Positions 10,896 to 26,089 of a stretch of 64,000 nt of DNA are shown here, in pieces. This DNA is from an uncultured Bacillota bacterium (GTDB lineage: Bacteria; Sysuimicrobiota; Sysuimicrobiia; Sysuimicrobiales; Segetimicrobiaceae). The notes under the pieces are model-generated. The model was not told where the DNA came from, made no database searches, and was given only the letters and a program-made list of their open reading frames with translations. Each line of letters starts with the position of its first letter. Position 1 is the first letter of the stretch. The position numbers were made by a program, and so were the translations under genes. The DNA lies in contig CAWDRG010000011.1 in the NCBI GenBank assembly GCA_963804645.1, positions 1-64,000 of the forward strand, in the 5' to 3' direction.

Positions 10896-11495
10896 ACGGA
10901 ACCTCCCGCGAGGTGTCCTCGGACTCCTTACCCCAGCTCTTCGGTTTGATCCTTGCCGATCCTTCCATTACGGATACGGGGCGGAGCCTCCAGCACGGAG
11001 GCGGCCGCGCCGCTTGGCTGCACGGCCGCGCCGGCGAGATTGCTCGGCAGCCCAGATGGACGGGCCCGTGGGGCTCGCCCGTCGCGACCCAGATGGCGCC
11101 CCGGACGGTGTCGGCGGTGCTCCGCCCGTCCAGCGTGTCGCTCCACTTCGTGATCGCGCCGAAAAATGGGTCAGTGGGAGACGCTGATGGGGGCCACGCG
11201 CGCTCTCTGGACGTGGCTTCGCACGATGATCCCGCTGTGATCGGAATGGCAGCGCCGCTGAGCCTGCCGGGTTCGTGCCAGCTCATCGACGCGCCTCGAC
11301 GTTGGTCGCGTCCCCCGTAAAGTCCACTGCACCTCGTGGCGCCGGGCAACGCACTTCACGATACCTCGCCGCGTCACGTCGGTTGCCTTGGGTTCCCCGC
11401 CACACCCGGTAGACTGTCCTCCGATGGCCCAGACACCTGTGCACTCCCCACACCAAGCGGTCCCGCCCTCCACGCGCCCTGCTCAAGGCCGAGTC

Positions 11496-11620
11496 GAGCT
11501 CCGTCCCGTATCAACTGGAGGCACTCGAGGCTGTAACGCGCGCCCATGCGCGTGGAGTGAGGCGGCTTCTGGTCGTACTGCCCGTTGGGACTGGGAAGAC
11601 GATCGTGGGCGCCTTTTTGA
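11496..11620 (+). pseudogene. N-terminal remnant of a superfamily-2 (DEAD/ResIII-like) helicase, cut off by the IS481 end
   Basis: With one C removed reads ELRPYQLEALEAVTRAHARGVRRLLVVLPVGTGKTIVGAFL (Q-motif + Walker A); stops exactly at 11621. Confidence 0.7.
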
Positions 11621-11633
11621 TGAACGGCCTGAG

Positions 11634-12444
11634 GTCGGGTAGCAGGGTGGCGCGCCGGTCAGGTTACCGTTAAGGAGCCTGACCACGGTTCCACCCCGCC
11701 CCCTATCATCCGGATAGCGGGTTTTCCCCAATCCGGCTGGAAGAGCACGCGCTCAGTTGCAGCGTTCCCGATCCTTCCCAGCCTGTACCTGGGGAGCGAT
11801 TGGTTTGCTGCAGCCTACAGCGTCGGTCCGGATCTTGGCGGTAGCCCGAGCGCGTTATCAGCACCCGCACCCTCTCCTTCTCCAACGCTGGCCTGCTCCC
11901 AGAGGCCCTTTGCTCCCGCTCCTTGTTATCGGAGCGATCATCGCTCCTACGGCCTCATGCGCCAGACTCTCCCCCACCAGTGAACTTCCCGAGTGAAGTC
12001 GGTTATATCACTGGCCTCACGGGTGAGAGCCCTTCCCCGCTTTGACCATCCACCCTTTGGATGTTGCCGCCACCCCTACGCCGGAGGGCTGGTTGCGTGC
12101 ACACGCCCAGCTTCTTCCGCAACCACACTGGCCTTCGTCCCCTATGTAGAAACTTGGCACCCTCATTCCCACTGTGGCGCTGAGCACTCCGTTACCGGAG
12201 CTCTGAGTGGGCCTGAATAACGACGCTGCAGTGTTCACTTCATGTTGCGGCCCCATCCATCGCTCGTCTCCTGGGCCACCGACCGCGGCCTTTATATCTC
12301 TGCCGGGCCGCCGAGACTTGTACGTCCGGGCTTCCGTCTCGCGAGTCACCTCCTTCGAGACGCCGGACAACACTACCGCGGCAAGTTGGGCGACTCCGCG
12401 GGTCGGACTCTCACCGACTGAGTGTATGGCTTTACGGGCTGCAC
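11634..12444 (-). ncRNA. ORF-less group II intron (811 nt)
   Basis: 5' GTGCAGCCCG...CGGTGAGAGTCCG. D3-like GAGGCCGTAGGAGCGATGA...GGAGCAAAGGGCCTC. D5 CAGCCGGATTGGGGAAAACCCGCTATCCGGATG (11707-11739, AGC triad). D6 ends CTACCCGAC. EBS1 loop ACATAG(G) at 12141-12147 is complementary to the 5' exon end (C)CTATGT. Confidence 0.92.
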
Positions 12445-12533
12445 ACATAGGTAACAGATTGTACCGGACACATGGGTAACACTTCCTCCTCCAAAATACC
12501 CCGTGTGAGGTAGCCAGGTCTAGTGTATAAGCG

Positions 12534-12983
12534 TTAGGCCGCTTCGACCGTGACCTTGTAGCCTAACCGTTCGAGCCGGTTGACTGCGTTGCGCACCACC
12601 GCTTCCTTCTTGCGCTCATCGTAGTAGTTGGCGCCCAGGTCCTCATAGGTGACACCGTCCCGCAAGACGTGATAGGCGATTTCCAAGATGTGGCGCCCCA
12701 CAGCGATGGCGGCCCGATTTCCCCCACGGCGGGCGGCGATCCGCCGATAGATGGCGCCGAGGTAGGTGGCCTTGGTCCGTCCTGCGGCCCGCCCCGCTTC
12801 TGTGAGGGTCCGCCGGAGGGTGGGGCTGCCTTTGCGGGTGCGCGCCCGGCGGCGTTTCCCAGCACTCTCATTGCTGCCTGGACTCATCCCCGCCCAGGCC
12901 GCCAGTTGGGCGGTGGTCGGAAAGCGCGTCATATCAGTGCCGACCTCGGCCACGATCACCTCAGCCACGTGTTGATTCACTCC
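12534..12983 (-). pseudogene. IS110 transposase, C-terminal half
   Basis: GVNQHVAEVIVAEVGTDMTRFPTTAQLAAWAGMSPGSNESAGK...AIAVGRHIL (Transposase_20-type, catalytic Ser motif). Confidence 0.9.
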
Positions 12984-12996
12984 CGGGACAGTGGCT

Positions 12997-15057
12997 TCAT
13001 ACTACACCTCCGGCAGTAGCCTTTTGGAGTGACGGTTTGAGGTGCACGGGGGTGGCGGTCCTCTGGCGACACGCCTCTTCGACCGCCGGAGAAAAAGGAA
13101 CACACAAGCGACCGCTCGTGTCGCGACGCGCTGCAAGCTTGCCTGCGTGGATCCAATCGTATACTGTCCATTTGCTGACCCCCAGTCGGCGGACAACCTC
13201 GCAGACCGTCAGCTCTCCTGGGCGAGGCTGAAAGGACGATGCAGGAATGTGGTAGGTGTGGCGGATCCAGCGGACAGATTTCACATCAAATGGCCGCCCC
13301 CCTTTCCGGGTCATTCCCGCCGTGTTGAGTGCGGTGACGATCTCATCATCCTGCTGCATCGCCAGCGCCCGAATCAGATCGACGACCGCACCCGGCGTCC
13401 GTTGAAGATCGCTGGCTGAGGCAGGGCGCTGGACGACGAGCTCCTCAGTCGCACCCGAGCGCCAGCGAATGCCGACGCCTACACGCGCACTGCCTGGAGC
13501 GGACCGTATCGTTACGTCCGCGACGAGCGCGCGAAGAATCCGCTTGCGGTCTCGGGCCGAGGTCGTAGGAGCAGCCCACAACGCGGGCACGTTGCGAGCG
13601 AGCGCCTCCAATTCTTGGCGCGATGGCAGCGGCGGCGCCTCCGCGCGCGCCCCCGCTAACGCGGTTTCCGCTTCCGCCAATGCGACGAGCGCAGTTTCCC
13701 ATCGTTGCTCCAGGCTCCGCGCCACCAGGCGGTTCTCCGGCTCACACTGATGGAACGCTCGCTCCGCCCGCGCCGCCTCATAGCGCGCCCGCTCCACCGG
13801 GAGTTCAGCGGCCCGGATGCGATTGGTCCGTCGTGCTGCGATCTCATCGGCGGCCTGGAGTGCCAGAGCAATCTGGTCTGTCGTGACCACGTCTAACATC
13901 CGCCGGGCCACGGCATCATCGATCACATCCGCCCGAACCGTGCGACACTGCGGAGTCTGGAGGTGCTCGACACGGGAATAGGAACAATCGTAGGCGGCCT
14001 TTCCGGAGGCATAGGAAGCATACCTCGGCGTCATCATCCGGCCACAGCCGCCGCACACGACGATCCCTTGCAGCAGCGCCTCGCCTTCCCGCGCAGGGCG
14101 TGCGCCTCCGCTCGTGTGGTTATGCGCCAACCGGTCCAGATTTGCAAGATAGGTCTCCCAGCTGATGTACGCGGGGTGATGGTGAGGGAGAACCACAAGC
14201 CATTCCTCCCGCGGAAGCTCTACTCGCTTCCGCCGAATTGAGCCATCCGGCTGTACGATGCGCCGGCATCGGTATCGTCCAAAGACGTAGGTCCCAGCAT
14301 AGACCGGGTTGGAAAGCATGCCAAGCACCCGGTAGTACGTGAGCCGGCCCCACCGGATCTCTCCCGTCCAGACGCCCCCGTGCACTCGCCGAGGAAACGG
14401 ACGCCGGCGAAAGATGCCCGCCGCGCCATATGCTGATCCGCTGGCCTCGAACGCGGCGAAGACGTCTGTGACGGCCTGCCGGATCTCCTCGTCCAAGTCC
14501 ATCACGGTACGGCCGTCCTGATCATACACGTAGCCGACTGGCAGCGGAACGCGTAATTCACCACGGGCCGCCGCGGCACGTTTCGACTCCTGCAACCGCC
14601 CGGCGAGGATATGAAGCTCTGCTTCGGACATTGCGCCCTTCAAGCCCAACAGGAGCCTGTCGTTAAAATGTTGCAGATTGTACACGCCGTCGGCATCGAT
14701 GATCAGCGTGTCCGTCAGGTTGCAGAATTCCAACAATCGTTGGAGGTCCGCGGAACTGCGGGCTAACCGCGAGACCTCCAACCCCAAGATGGCGCCGACC
14801 TCGCCCAGGCACACCCGACTGACGAGCTCCTGAAACCCCGCACGGGTGGTGCCGCTGCGACCGGACAGGCCCAGATCGGCATCGATCACGAGGATCTTGG
14901 ATGCTTCCCACCCCAATCGGGTGGCTTCCTCCGCCAGTGCATACTGCCGGGCGGTCGACTCGGTGTGTTCGCGCACCTGGGTCATCGTGGACTGTCGCAC
15001 ATACACGATTGCCAGACGCTCCCGGTGAGTGGGCGTGATCGTCCTCGCGTCGCTCAT
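12997..15057 (-). CDS. Large serine recombinase (resolvase + recombinase + Zn-ribbon + C-terminal HTH)
   Basis: AIVYVRQST (catalytic Ser), DLGLSG, EVSRLARS, LLQGIVVCGGCG...YDC, C-terminal excisionase-like HTH (EVVRRLGVSKWTVYDWIHAGKL). Confidence 0.95.
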   Translation of the reverse strand: MSDARTITPTHRERLAIVYVRQSTMTQVREHTESTARQYALAEEATRLGWEASKILVIDADLGLSGRSGTTRAGFQELVSRVCLGEVGAILGLEVSRLARSSADLQRLLEFCNLTDTLIIDADGVYNLQHFNDRLLLGLKGAMSEAELHILAGRLQESKRAAAARGELRVPLPVGYVYDQDGRTVMDLDEEIRQAVTDVFAAFEASGSAYGAAGIFRRRPFPRRVHGGVWTGEIRWGRLTYYRVLGMLSNPVYAGTYVFGRYRCRRIVQPDGSIRRKRVELPREEWLVVLPHHHPAYISWETYLANLDRLAHNHTSGGARPAREGEALLQGIVVCGGCGRMMTPRYASYASGKAAYDCSYSRVEHLQTPQCRTVRADVIDDAVARRMLDVVTTDQIALALQAADEIAARRTNRIRAAELPVERARYEAARAERAFHQCEPENRLVARSLEQRWETALVALAEAETALAGARAEAPPLPSRQELEALARNVPALWAAPTTSARDRKRILRALVADVTIRSAPGSARVGVGIRWRSGATEELVVQRPASASDLQRTPGAVVDLIRALAMQQDDEIVTALNTAGMTRKGGRPFDVKSVRWIRHTYHIPASSFQPRPGELTVCEVVRRLGVSKWTVYDWIHAGKLAARRDTSGRLCVPFSPAVEEACRQRTATPVHLKPSLQKATAGGVV

Positions 15058-15142
15058 GCGCGTTCCCCCCGGCGGCGAGCGCGGCCTCGAGCATGTTGGC
15101 CAGCGGCGCCACGAGTTCGCTCGTCGCGCCGCTGAACCCCAC

Positions 15143-15490
15143 TCAGGTCAGCTCCCCGCGGGTCAGCAGTTCCAGGTTGATCGCCGAGATCTCCGCCAGC
15201 GTCGCCTCGATGCGGGCGGTGAGCATGACCCGGCGGCGTACCGCCGCCGCCAGCGCCGCCGGAATATACAGGAGACGCCGTCCCGTTCCCCGCCGGACCG
15301 TCAGGAACACGTACGGACCGTGCAGCTCCCCCCGCGCGCACCGGCAGCCCGGTTTCCCACACCGCCGGTGCTGGATTACCAGCGCCCCGTGCATGACCGC
15401 CTCGAGCGTCGGGAGGCTGCGTGCCCGTTGGGTCCGGCGCGCGCGTAATTGCCTCGTGCTGAGCTTGGCGAGTGGTATCTTTTGTATCAT
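15143..15490 (-). CDS. DUF6788-like small basic Zn-binding protein
   Basis: GALVIQHRRCGKPGCRCARGELHGPYVFL...LYIP motif, typical of DUF6788 proteins next to transposases/recombinases. Confidence 0.75.
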   Translation of the reverse strand: MIQKIPLAKLSTRQLRARRTQRARSLPTLEAVMHGALVIQHRRCGKPGCRCARGELHGPYVFLTVRRGTGRRLLYIPAALAAAVRRRVMLTARIEATLAEISAINLELLTRGELT

Positions 15491-15519
15491 TGGTACCAAA
15501 GATATCACCTGCCGCGGGA

Positions 15520-15801
15520 AACGTCAAGGGGTGCGACAGCACCGCCACCACGCGGAGCACCTCCACCAGAATGGAGGCGGTGAGAGGGTGTGGCTCCGGA
15601 GGGGCGCCGCGATCGGTAAAAGCTTCTGGCAACGCAATACTGCCGGCTGGCCCGGCATCACAAATGTAGATACGTCCACGAGTGGCGTAGCGGCGTGTGA
15701 CCAGTATGGGAAGTCGCTGGTCCCTCAGCGGATGAAACGGATGGGTGACAACGAGGGAATCCGAAAGACTACTGACTGCACTCGTAGTTTGCGTGGACCG
15801 T
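15520..15801 (-). CDS. DUF5372 (Y4bD)-like ORF lacking a start codon in the integrated state; frame stays open to 15054
   Basis: ...SDSLVVTHPFHPLRDQRLPIL...SIALPEAFTDR; no ATG/GTG/TTG ahead of the THPFHPL motif, and an in-frame TGA lies just across the junction. Confidence 0.7.
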
Positions 15802-16575
15802 CGGGATCGTGTCGAGCTGCGTCATCTGGGCCTCGAAAGGGACGAGGCGGGCCGTCACCTCCGCATCCAGGGCCGCGATCTGCTGGTCGAGATGTCGAAT
15901 GTGCTCCAATTGGAGCCGCAGCATGAGGTGCTGATGCCGGGTGAGCCGCCCGCGCAATGCGTCGACCAACTGCTCTTGCGTGGCCCGCAACCGGGGATCC
16001 GCGAGCGCCGCGATGTCCTCAGGACTGCGCTGGCCCGTCGCGAGGGCCTCCAGCATCGCGCGGCCGGATTTGCCCAGAATGTCGGTCACCACCGACCCAA
16101 GTTTAATGTTGCCACCCTCCAAGACCTTGTGGATGCGGTTGGTTTCATCTGCCCGTTCGCTGACCATCGTGATGCGATATCGGATCAATTCTCGCAACTC
16201 TCGCTGCGGACGCGGAGGGATGAAGCTGGCCTTCAGCAGCCCGTGCCGCATCAGGTCGGAGATCCATTCCGCATCGTGCACATCCGTTTTGCGCCCCGGG
16301 ACGGCTTTCATGTGCGCAGCGTTCACGACATACACCGTCATGCCCGTAGCTTCCAACAGATTATAGAGCGGCTTCCAGTAGACCCCGGTGCTTTCCATGG
16401 CTACGTGCGTAATCTGCAGCGCCTGCAACCACTCCATTAGGAGGAGGAGCTCCGAGGTCGTCGTTCCAAAGGTCCGAGTTTCGCTGCTGGCCGGCACCAC
16501 CGCGTGGACGGTCACGGTTTTCTTGTGCACATCGCATCCTGCACACCGCTCGTACAGCACCTTCAAGTTCCCCAC
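15802..16575 (-). pseudogene. IS110 transposase, N-terminal half (DEDD RuvC-like domain)
   Basis: GTG start after GGAGG; CAGCDVHK, VAMESTGVYWKP, PGRKTDVHDAEWI. Confidence 0.92.
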
Positions 16576-16797
16576 GGCTATCCTCCCTGCGACGGTTCGC
16601 GGCGATCCGTATAGAGGAATTCTCCTCCGCATGCTCGCCCGAAGGCGGCGACAATGCGTGGTGCGCCAGATCGCCGGGGTCAGACTCCCATCCACGGGCT
16701 CTCGGCACCAAGGAAACTTCGACCTCTCGTCCCCCGCCGCAGTCATGTCCTTCGATGGGGTGGGCCGATTTCATTCTGCGTGGTGCTGGCTATGGCC
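16576..16797 (-). ncRNA. Candidate IS110 bridge-RNA-encoding non-coding end
   Basis: ~220-nt non-coding region upstream of the IS110 recombinase, the position known to encode bridge RNA; structure not folded here. Confidence 0.45.
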
Positions 16798-16830
16798 AGC
16801 ATGGGGGGCTCCCCGAAAGGGGGAGGTCGG

Positions 16831-18013
16831 ATGCCTTGGAAGGAGTGTTCGGTCATGGACGAAAGAATGCAGTTCGTCGCGCGTCGACTGGCGGGTGAGC
16901 CGATGGCGGAACTGTGCCGAGCGTTTGGGATTTCCCACAAGACCGGCTACAAGCTCTTCGAGCGGTATCAGGAATGCGGCCTTCACGGGCTCACGGACCG
17001 CAGCCGGCGTCCGTATCGCTACGCCAACCAACTGCCCTTTCAAGTCGAGAACTACATTCTCAATGTGAAGCGCGAGCACCCCAGCTGGGGGGCGCGGAAA
17101 ATTCGCGAGCGCGTGACGCGCCGGTTCTCGGGGATTCCCCATCCCCGCGAAGAGCACGATCCATGCGGTGCTGGATCGTCACGGCCGGGTGGAGCGTCGC
17201 GGTCGGATGCGGCGGCGGGCTCAGGGCACCCCCTTGTCGCTCGGGCACCGTCCGAACGAAGTATGGTGCACCGATTACAAAGGCGAGCTCCTGCTTGGCA
17301 ATCACCACTACTGCTATCCGCTCACGGTCACCGACCACGCCAGCCGGTTTCTGCTGGCCTGCGAAGCCCCCTCGTCCACCAAAGAACCCTACGCGGTGAC
17401 GGTGTTTGAGCGGCTGTTTCAGGAGCGCGGGCTCCCGGCCAACATCCGCAGCGATAACGGCGTCCCGTTCTCGTCCGCGCACGCCCTCTTTCACTTGAGC
17501 AGACTGGCGGTCTGGTGGTTACGCCTCGGCATTGGCATCGAACGTATCCAACCCGGCCATCCCCAACAGAATGGCCGGCATGAACGCGTGCACCTCACGT
17601 TGAAGAAAGAAGCCACCAAGCCCGCCGCGGCCAACTTCCTGCAGCAGCAGGTCCGGTTTGACAAATTTATCGACATCTTCAACAACGAACGCCCGCACGA
17701 AGCGCTGGGCATGAAATGTCCGGCGGAAGTCTACCACCCGTCCCAACGTCCCTACACCGGCTTGCCGGATATCGATTATCCGCTGCATGACAAGACCATC
17801 GTGGTCACCCAGTGCAGTCGCATCTGTCTGGACAACCACAAGATCAACTTCAGCCAGGTTTTTGCGGGACAAGCCGTCGGCATTAAAGAGGTGTATGATG
17901 ACATCTGGCTGGTCAGCTTTATGGATTATGACCTAGGGTACTTTGATCTAGAGACACGAGTGCTCGAACCGCTCGAAAATCCGTTCGGCCCGAAAGTGTT
18001 ACCTATGTCTTAG
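16831..18013 (+). pseudogene. IS481-family transposase, +1 frameshift at ~17140
   Basis: MPWKECSVMDERMQFV HTH N-terminus; rve core WCTDYKG / IRSDNG / QQNGRHER; ends KVLPMS within the right repeat. Removing one C from ATTCCCCATC restores GIPIPAKSTIHAVL. Confidence 0.9.
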
Positions 18014-18152
18014 GTACAAAGTGTCACCGATGTCTCCGGGCTGGACCTTTCCGGGACGCGCGGATCCCTGCATTCATATCGAAGGAATCATCGCTGCGTC
18101 GCTTCCTCGGTGAACCACCGCGAGTCCGGCGTCGCTCTCGGCGACAGGTGAG

Positions 18153-26012: not shown

Positions 26013-26089
26013 TGGTCGGGGCGGTCGGACTTGAACCGACGACCTTCTGCTCCCAAAGCAGACGCGCTACCAAGCTGCGCCACGCCCCG
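26013..26089 (-). tRNA. tRNA-Pro (TGG), CCA encoded
   Basis: CGGGGCGTGGCGCAGCTTGGTAGCGCGTCTGCTTTGGGAGCAGAAGGTCGTCGGTTCAAGTCCGACCGCCCCGACCA folds as a cloverleaf. Confidence 0.97.

Follow-up and report, generated by a model that had tools for sequence, protein, structure and literature searches.

Several described ribozyme elements are close enough to the locus reported here to serve as a background for it. As outlined in the cited account, the TeI3 introns of Thermosynechococcus elongatus lack an open reading frame (ORF), spread by means of a driver reverse transcriptase (RT) supplied in trans, have diverged in their exon-binding sequences (EBS) and form twintrons (PMC2882425). RmInt1 of Sinorhizobium meliloti is described as a group II intron homing into the insertion sequence (IS) ISRm2011-2 (PMC4238363, PMC3035460), the group IIC-attC introns of integrons as specialised on the recombination site of another mobile element (PMC3001079), and IStrons as a group I intron fused to an IS (PMC4227781). 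The element considered here lies at 11634-12444, on the minus strand, of the first 64,000 nucleotides of contig CAWDRG010000011.1 from an uncultured soil bacterium of the Bacillota; this whole stretch is called the window below. It is very probably a non-autonomous, ORF-less group II intron that retrohomed into the left end of an IS481-like element. A literature search covering titles and abstract openings turned up no group II intron described from the terminal repeat of an IS481 element.

Identity, borders and fold of the intron

The 811-nt feature runs from 12444 to 11634, starting GTGCAG and ending CTACCCGAC. An Rfam scan of the whole window returned two matches only, one to a tRNA and the other to group-II-D1D4-4 (RF02003), which covers the 5' part of domain 1 at 12240-12420 on the minus strand (58.2 bits against a gathering score of 49, E 3.4e-10). 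When the intron was compared by BLAST with the 22 contigs of the window's own genome (G000), seven matches were obtained: five near-identical full-length copies (the window copy and those denoted A, B, C and E), a full-length copy of 75% identity at C4:158167-158962 and one 247-nt fragment. As the five copies all span exactly query positions 1-811, both borders are fixed independently of any model. The five differ at 1-4 of 811 positions. A preliminary description of the locus, made from the letters of the window, had given these coordinates and called the feature a group II intron; the copies, the RF02003 match and the six-domain fold set out below bear out both. RF02003 also matches the relatives L006 (67.5 bits) and L018 (62.6 bits). 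Contig C4 holds, in addition, a 240-nt internal fragment of the family (L007, C4:142244-142483), 83% identical to intron positions 72-318 and truncated at both ends.

The fold was obtained with RNAalifold from an alignment of the window copy with two diverged full-length relatives, C4:158167 and G006:C144 (73-75% identity), the second from another genome. The three lineages gave six domains and 254 pairs, with 96.7% of the paired cells standard. Both sides have changed in 54 of the 254 pairs; six slid controls gave 3-6 such compensatory pairs, and none of 500 shuffles (mean 21.6) reached 54. After mapping of the alignment columns, domain 1 falls at 12036-12438, domain 2 at 11964-12032 (helices 20-22, 6 compensatory pairs), domain 3 at 11902-11956 (helices 23-25) and domain 4, structured and 164 nt long, at 11738-11901 (helices 26-32, 17 compensatory pairs), all on the minus strand like the two that follow. 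Domain 5 (11708-11738; helix 33, 10 pairs, 2 of them compensatory) reads AGC-CGGAU-UGGG-GAAAA-CCCG-[CU]-AUCCGG, that is, an AGC triad and helices of 6 and 4 bp with a 2-nt CU bulge and a GAAAA loop; the triad is atypical in two relatives, where it is AAC. Domain 6 (11637-11704; helices 34-37) is unusually long at 68 nt, and the candidate for the branch point is A 11640, bulged out between helices 34 and 35 at 7 nt from the 3' splice site. Domains 5 and 6 were recognised by comparison and covariation. One domain 5 base, at intron position 736 (11709, minus strand), is copy-specific: it is A in the window copy and copy A, where it puts a G.A opposite the G of the AGC triad, and U in copies B, C and E and in one metagenome DNA contig, where a canonical G.U results.

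None of the three ORFs inside the intron matches a Pfam family, and when five resident RTs were compared by tblastn with the intron copies of the window and of C4, nothing better than E 0.4 and no ORF remnant emerged, in agreement with the earlier statement that an RT ORF is missing. Without an RT ORF in domain 4 the intron is non-autonomous. Since domain 4 is a conserved structured RNA carrying compensatory changes, the ORF-less state is older than the split of the three lineages. Because the intron encodes no protein, a helper RT must be encoded elsewhere, and RTs that might act in trans, as had been foreseen, are present: the genome has 11 GIIM matches, with open frames of 419 aa (three), 442 aa (one), 460 aa (three), 446 aa (two) and 406 aa (two). 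The introns with the 460-, 442-, 446- and 406-aa RTs (RT460, RT442, RT446 and RT406 below) are themselves matched by RF02003.

Guide pairing and the target in the left end of the IS481-like element

The hairpin GTTTC-TACATAG-GGGAC (12137-12153, minus strand) presents EBS1, ACATAGG at 12147-12141, in its loop. As RNA, this loop (ACAUAGG) forms seven Watson-Crick pairs with CCUAUGU, the last seven bases of the exon, and is fully complementary to them. In the same alignment column the C4 copy has the loop UUAGAGU facing the exon end ACUCUAA, and the G006 copy the loop GCAGAAAG facing the exon end CUUUCUGC. The contiguous Watson-Crick pairs between EBS1 and the intron-binding sequence (IBS1) thus number 7 in the window copy, 7 in C4:158167 and 8 in G006:C144, and the sequences involved are entirely different. 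EBS1 and the 5' splice site are both confirmed by the three unlike guide/target pairs that share this loop position. The hairpin had been picked out beforehand for the complementarity of its loop to the exon end, and this pairing is now found to co-vary in all three diverged members of the family.

The left inverted repeat contains two direct repeat units, and the insertion bond falls in the outer one, 13 bp inside the tip of the IS; the intron is oriented outward, antisense to the transposase gene. The 5' exon (12445-12489, minus strand) is the inner 45 bp of the IS481-like left inverted repeat, comprising the two direct repeat units, with IBS1 CTATGT at 12450-12445; it is common to copies A, B and C and is contiguous with the tip in empty sites. 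The 3' exon (11621-11633, minus strand) is the terminal 13 bp of the left end, CTCAGGCCGTTCA, and matches the tips of intron-free IS copies. The 5' exon sequence ending GTGTTACCCATGTGTCCGGTACAAYCTGTTACCTATGT and the 3' exon starting CTCAGG are common to the five near-identical copies, although the 5' exon of the copy on contig C15 is reduced to about 30 nt and contains an insertion of 2 nt.

The host IS, judged from copy A, has terminal inverted repeats, and one ORF encodes its transposase with no programmed frameshift. The transposase is 374 aa long from its Met, is encoded on the strand opposite to the intron and has IS481 as its best NCBIfam family (NF033577, 217.4 bits, E 2.8e-64, where the curated cut-off is 224); the next family is IS3, at 105.9 bits. 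The IS is bounded by imperfect inverted repeats, about 55 bp each, that contain two direct repeat units apiece, the other end carrying the inverted counterpart ending GTGTTACCCATGTCTTAGGTACGAACTGTCACCTATGTCTCCGGGTTGGACC. The terminal-repeat host first described as IS481 is, on its transposase family (just under the cut-off) and its repeat units, IS481-like. The limits of the element are fixed by 3-bp target duplications in four of four intact elements: GAT (A), TCA (B), ACG (C) and TCC (an intron-free element in G015). Its tips read GGTCCA at their start. IS481 family members have target duplications of 4-15 bp and TGT termini, and it is because the 3-bp duplications and GGTCCA tips differ from these values that the host is called IS481-like.

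Empty sites were sought as the ligated junction, with up to 2 mismatches, in 94 genomes of the order. Matches occurred in 11 of the 94, G000 included, all in one family. The 19-mer CTGTTACCTATGTCTCAGG is uninterrupted and exact in intron-free IS copies of G015 and G014, and G003, G004 and G010 each have a one-mismatch version at the corresponding point of that repeat. The IS copies of these five genomes thus hold CTGTTACCTATGT joined directly to CTCAGG, exactly in the first two and with the one mismatch in the other three, and the preliminary view that splicing would restore the IS481 repeat stands. The empty-site tips read CTCAGG(C/T)CG(G/C)TC(A/G) in G015, G014, G004 and G003 and CTCGGG in G010; because they match it, the 3' exon of the window is a complete IS tip, ending at 11621.

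Within G000 itself, the intron interrupts the same bond in all four recognisable left repeats and in one remnant. A search with up to 4 mismatches in a 25-mer found no empty left repeat there, and no right-repeat or inner unit in that genome was found to be occupied. Compared with the occupied unit, the outer unit of the right repeat has C at -9, the inner units have C at -4, and the inner unit of the window's right repeat has G at -13 and T at +3. A target in IS481 ends had been proposed for the intron; tabulation of the flanks upholds this for the five near-identical copies. The relatives of 73-75% identity are at non-IS481 sites, each with its own matching EBS1. A second guide might contribute to the choice of unit. 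The hairpin CUCCG-GUAA-CGGAG (12183-12204, minus strand), either a GNRA-type tetraloop or a candidate EBS2, contains GGUAACGG, which could pair with exon positions -13 to -6, CUGUUACC, over 8 nt including one G-U pair; such a pairing would account for the emptiness of the other three similar repeat units. Copy A reads GGAA at this loop, and a search by complementarity found no EBS2 column common to all three lineages. The motif GGGAAAU, which complements -18 to -12 of the exons of two relatives, was rejected as EBS2, being located in domain 2 and absent from the window lineage.

The target repeat is presumably a binding site of the transposase. As the intron parts the terminal 13 bp from the rest of the IS end by 811 bp, its insertion probably cripples that end for transposition.

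Origin of the copies and candidate helpers

The transposase genes of A, B and C share 99.2-99.7% DNA identity with each other, and that of the window is 91.4-92.3% identical to theirs. The IS tips flanking the same intron are of three kinds, YTGGAGG (A, B and C), CCGTTCA (window) and CCGCTCA (C15), and the window flanks differ from those of A, B and C at -15 and +7 while the introns are 99.9% identical. Single-nucleotide polymorphisms within the intron place the window copy beside A and unite B, C and E, but by IS sequence A belongs with B and C. Read together, the divergence of the IS, the three kinds of tip and these discordant groupings require at least three independent, base-precise insertions, as retrohoming would give and duplication of the IS would not. 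In the scheme proposed, the excised intron RNA would reverse-splice into DNA at the bond between CTGTTACCTATGT and CTCAGG and then be copied into DNA; the choice of target would be led mainly by the pairing of EBS1 (ACAUAGG) with CCUAUGU, and help in splicing, as well as reverse transcription, would come from the RT/maturase of another resident intron.

The same distribution could in principle have arisen if the intron had entered one IS481-like copy a single time and transposition of the IS, with the intron inside its left end, had made the rest. The copies do lie inside IS limits, with intact 3-bp target duplications in A, B and C; the IS sequences of these three are about as similar to each other as their introns are, and no empty left repeat is left in G000. 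This history is nevertheless unlikely for the set as a whole, since the window IS has diverged from those of A, B and C to the extent given above and yet the introns differ at 1-2 of 811 positions, and since one intron sits in three IS tip variants with conflicting groupings. A terminal repeat split 13 bp from its tip should, moreover, hinder end recognition. A still smaller probability is given to the idea that the intron is no longer mobile or competent for splicing and that its near-identity reflects recent gene conversion, at the DNA level, between IS ends. The change to G.A in domain 5 of the window copy and copy A would fit with this, as would the failure of the domain 5/6 model RF00029 to match and the state of the host transposase genes, three of four being broken or cut off from the left end. 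Against it, conversion tracts at the window would need to stop no more than 14 nt upstream and no more than 6 nt downstream of the intron, and the G.A is shared at the same domain 5 position by the RT460 introns, whose ORFs are intact in three copies. In addition, a 5'-truncated, 53-nt 3'-terminal fragment of the intron, of 94% identity, is present in another genus at an unrelated site (G010:C46; L019:1501-1553), inside an IS256-like transposase frame, which is the pattern expected of abortive reverse transcription.

That the feature might be no intron at all, and instead a structured non-coding RNA or an extended end belonging to the IS481-like element, is suggested by its constant position in G000 within an IS481 left end. 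Five related genomes, however, have intron-free IS481 copies whose end is contiguous, and homologues of 73-75% identity are located at non-IS481 sites, each with its own matching EBS1, besides the Rfam group II match. This reading has already been refuted to a large extent and can hardly be maintained.

RNA-library contigs from two studies include intron sequence and the 5' junction: X11 spans 11898-12457 with no difference, X15 spans 11828-12428 and X17 spans 11726-12489, all without strand and with DNA carry-over possible. No contig joining 11633 to 12445 was found in three RNA runs and one DNA run, although contigs cannot show absence and are silent on splicing. Contigs that come loose at 12443-12451 derive from other organisms, as CTCGGG variants of an IS end without the intron.

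Several observations weigh against retrohoming of a competent ribozyme into the IS end, or at least complicate it. RF00029 (Intron_gpII, domains 5 and 6) misses both the window copy and copy B, with its canonical G.U, even at E<=10, and the sole match to any domain 5 model is to the plastid one, at 11.8 bits. Of the checks proposed at the outset, therefore, the Rfam scan succeeded for RF02003, above its gathering score, and failed for RF00029, and the "complete ribozyme hallmarks" first claimed are borne out by RF02003, the fold and EBS1 but not by the domain 5/6 model. A long domain 6 is found in the resident RT460, RT442 and RT446 introns as well, two of them with a GGCGCGC-like stretch before the 3' strand of the domain; being common to resident introns, it is a trait of the class, and it probably accounts for the missing RF00029 match. 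Group II introns usually have the termini 5' GUGYG and 3' AY. The 3' terminus here is AC; the 5' end is GUGCA (UUGCA in G006), so that position 5 is off the consensus in all three lineages. Because a G.A replaces the G.U beside the catalytic triad, the window copy may be a weaker ribozyme. The intron-free right inverted repeat of the window IS (17992-18047, plus strand) contains at 17996-18014 a site identical to target positions -12 to +2, and this near-identical site is unoccupied, which means that specificity is not explained by EBS1 alone. The candidate EBS2 offered above resembles a GNRA tetraloop, and its loop does not fit the exons of the two relatives. No ORF remnant ties the intron to a parent. 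Spread as a passenger of the IS may, finally, apply to A, B and C specifically, given how alike their IS sequences are.

Turning to the source of the RT, a profile of the ORF-less family was used with nhmmer, and, apart from the family's own copies, it scored the three RT460 introns best (E 7.5e-13 to 9e-12, profile positions 3-538), above those of RT406 (E 3.3e-06 and 2.4e-05) and RT442 (E 1.5e-05). RT460 has RVT_1 and GIIM domains, and no endonuclease domain was found in it with Pfam. With the closest ribozyme, the RT460 family is the leading candidate for the helper. It is quite possibly the helper itself, and another RT of the RF02003 class is almost as likely. At 90% identity or more, RT460 is present in G000 and G004 only. 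No member of the intron family was found by BLAST in G004, a genome of 65% completeness, and, as a further point against the scheme, G006 has a family member although nothing in it is closer to RT460 than 48% identity. Co-occurrence consequently does not identify the helper.

Two side observations concern these resident introns. About 70 nt located 5' of the aligned RT460 intron start are kept in all three copies (C15:386230-386300, C15:~457070 and C5:~195070) and hold an 8-bp hairpin, GCGTGTCC/GGGCACGC; they could be an extension of the intron or a conserved target. There are also two copies of an intron-in-intron arrangement, at C15:~385100-388700 and C5:~193100-196700 (L012, L014, L017, L220). 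In these the 406-aa RT frame leaves the GIIM model at position 38 of 80, where the intron with the 460-aa RT starts, and a second canonical domain 5/6 (RF00029, 41.1 bits) is present about 400 nt past that of the inner intron.

BLAST of the intron over 61 relatives gave matches in five genomes, counting G000; the sole full-length relative is that in G006, and two of the matches, in G039 and G048, are 25 nt long. In metagenomes the 17-mer TGCTCTTCCARCCGGAT matched at least 120 loci, but 0 of the 120 listed fit the family profile past the 17-mer and they were discarded as chance matches. An invariant 18-mer gave 47 loci in the genome collection, of which one was a true member (L065, the same contig as the G006 copy); no full-length parent of the intron family was found among these 47.

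The C4 copy (L006) follows an IS110-family transposase fragment in the same orientation, at a distance of about 170 nt. The sequence on the 5' side of this intron copy recurs in the genome: two other copies of the IS110-like element have the uninterrupted sequence TTAA or TTAG followed by CACACAC and diverge thereafter, and these intron-free ends of the C4-type IS110-family element are at C15:~369713 and C15:~464447. Because the uninterrupted sites diverge after CACACAC, the C4 intron lies within an IS110-family element, about 7 bp from its right tip, and again faces outward. That of G006 lies downstream of a SRAP-type gene (family by inspection), in unique DNA. Two of three lineages are thus at IS tips, a count that is suggestive and not a statistic. 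From this one could speculate, though it seems distinctly unlikely, that the ORF-less lineage is specialised on the extreme tips of DNA transposons, priming from a 3'-OH made by the transposase or from copy-out replication. A 3'-OH or replication just outside the IS tip would then prime reverse transcription, the resident RTs having no detected endonuclease domain. Intron endonucleases normally nick the opposite strand at +9/+10, and an end made by the transposase would be similar in position to that nick. If this were true, the intron would be a parasite that depends on the activity of the IS and disables the IS end it enters. The sister copy at the IS110 tip hints at a wider targeting of transposon ends which, if real, would link retrohoming to transposition intermediates.

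Surroundings and comparison with known systems

The host IS in the window is wrecked by nested insertions and by a frameshift in its transposase gene. This gene (16855-17977, plus strand) was recovered by tblastn as two pieces of 89-90% amino acid identity to copy A and is frameshifted near 17140. Between it and the left repeat is a nested IS110-family element with approximate limits 12490-16800 (minus strand; NCBIfam IS110 match at 12534-12980), whose insertion point is exactly the inner edge of the IS481-like left repeat. The nested element is itself split into a C-terminal piece at 12534-12980 and an N-terminal piece at 15769-16746 (the family of the latter by inspection) by a unit encoding a 686-aa large serine recombinase (12997-15057, NCBIfam matches) and a 121-aa ORF (15143-15508). 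On the other side, a truncated helicase gene (11425-11620, plus strand), a ResIII N-terminus with Walker A motif (Pfam PF04851, E 4.3e-7), abuts the IS tip. The rest of this gene was not found beyond 18047, on the far side of the IS complex, where an SDR gene follows; the two flanks of the complex are unlike each other and have no target duplication.

Nested IS copies are also found in sister IS481-like elements of G000, at C19:13918-15153 and C11:130470-131852 (families by inspection). Copy B has an IS256-like gene between the transposase start and the left repeat, and copy C another transposase gene between its two right-end repeat units (both by inspection). The tRNA gene of the window is at 26016-26089 on the minus strand (Rfam, 68.1 bits).

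The closest likeness is to TeI3, which likewise has lineages diverged in EBS, ORF-containing relatives in the same genome, introns nested within introns in that genome, and a proposed or demonstrated driver RT acting in trans (PMC2882425). That account describes TeI3 as keeping N- and C-terminal ORF remnants around one deletion, whereas the window intron has no detectable remnant (PMC2882425). What the TeI3 case leads one to look for is present in G000: five near-identical copies at matching IBS sites, together with intact RT-encoding relatives. The family studied here also departs from TeI3 as described: its domain 4 keeps a conserved RNA structure in all three lineages, no resident full-length ribozyme is more than remotely alike (nhmmer E ~1e-12 for the closest), no endonuclease domain was detected in the resident RTs, and mobilisation in trans is a proposal.

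With RmInt1, as that intron is described, the window intron shares a natural homing site inside an IS, an RT without endonuclease domain and the life of a retroelement rather than of a gene intron. RmInt1 encodes its own RT, and its site is in the interior of the IS or in the transposase gene. The window intron has no RT and occupies, antisense to the transposase, a non-coding site in a terminal inverted repeat, 13 bp from the tip. The IIC-attC introns are comparable, on the published outline, in that a lineage has become specialised on a site of another mobile element and not on a gene. IIC introns, of small size and with an RT of their own, target a stem-loop together with a short IBS1; unlike them, the window intron has a large domain 1 and a 7-nt EBS1 and is of the RF02003 type. 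IStrons, in the form summarised in the source given above, are similar in that a ribozyme of self-splicing type is physically tied to a DNA transposon. Their ribozyme removes the whole composite from RNA and mobility is provided by the IS, whereas here the intron alone would be spliced and would move itself into IS ends.

The locus thus presents what appears to be an enzyme-less retroelement that occupies every recognisable left end of one transposon family in one genome. It would offer a natural system in which to study the mobility of an ORF-less intron by way of an unrelated-looking helper RT, the choice by a few bases among four near-identical repeats, and the silencing of one mobile element by another that splits its terminal repeat. 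ORF-less introns mobilised in trans and introns that target IS are both already known; what is added to them here are the exact empty sites, three co-varying guide/target pairs, the saturation of one IS end and a possible IS-tip habit.

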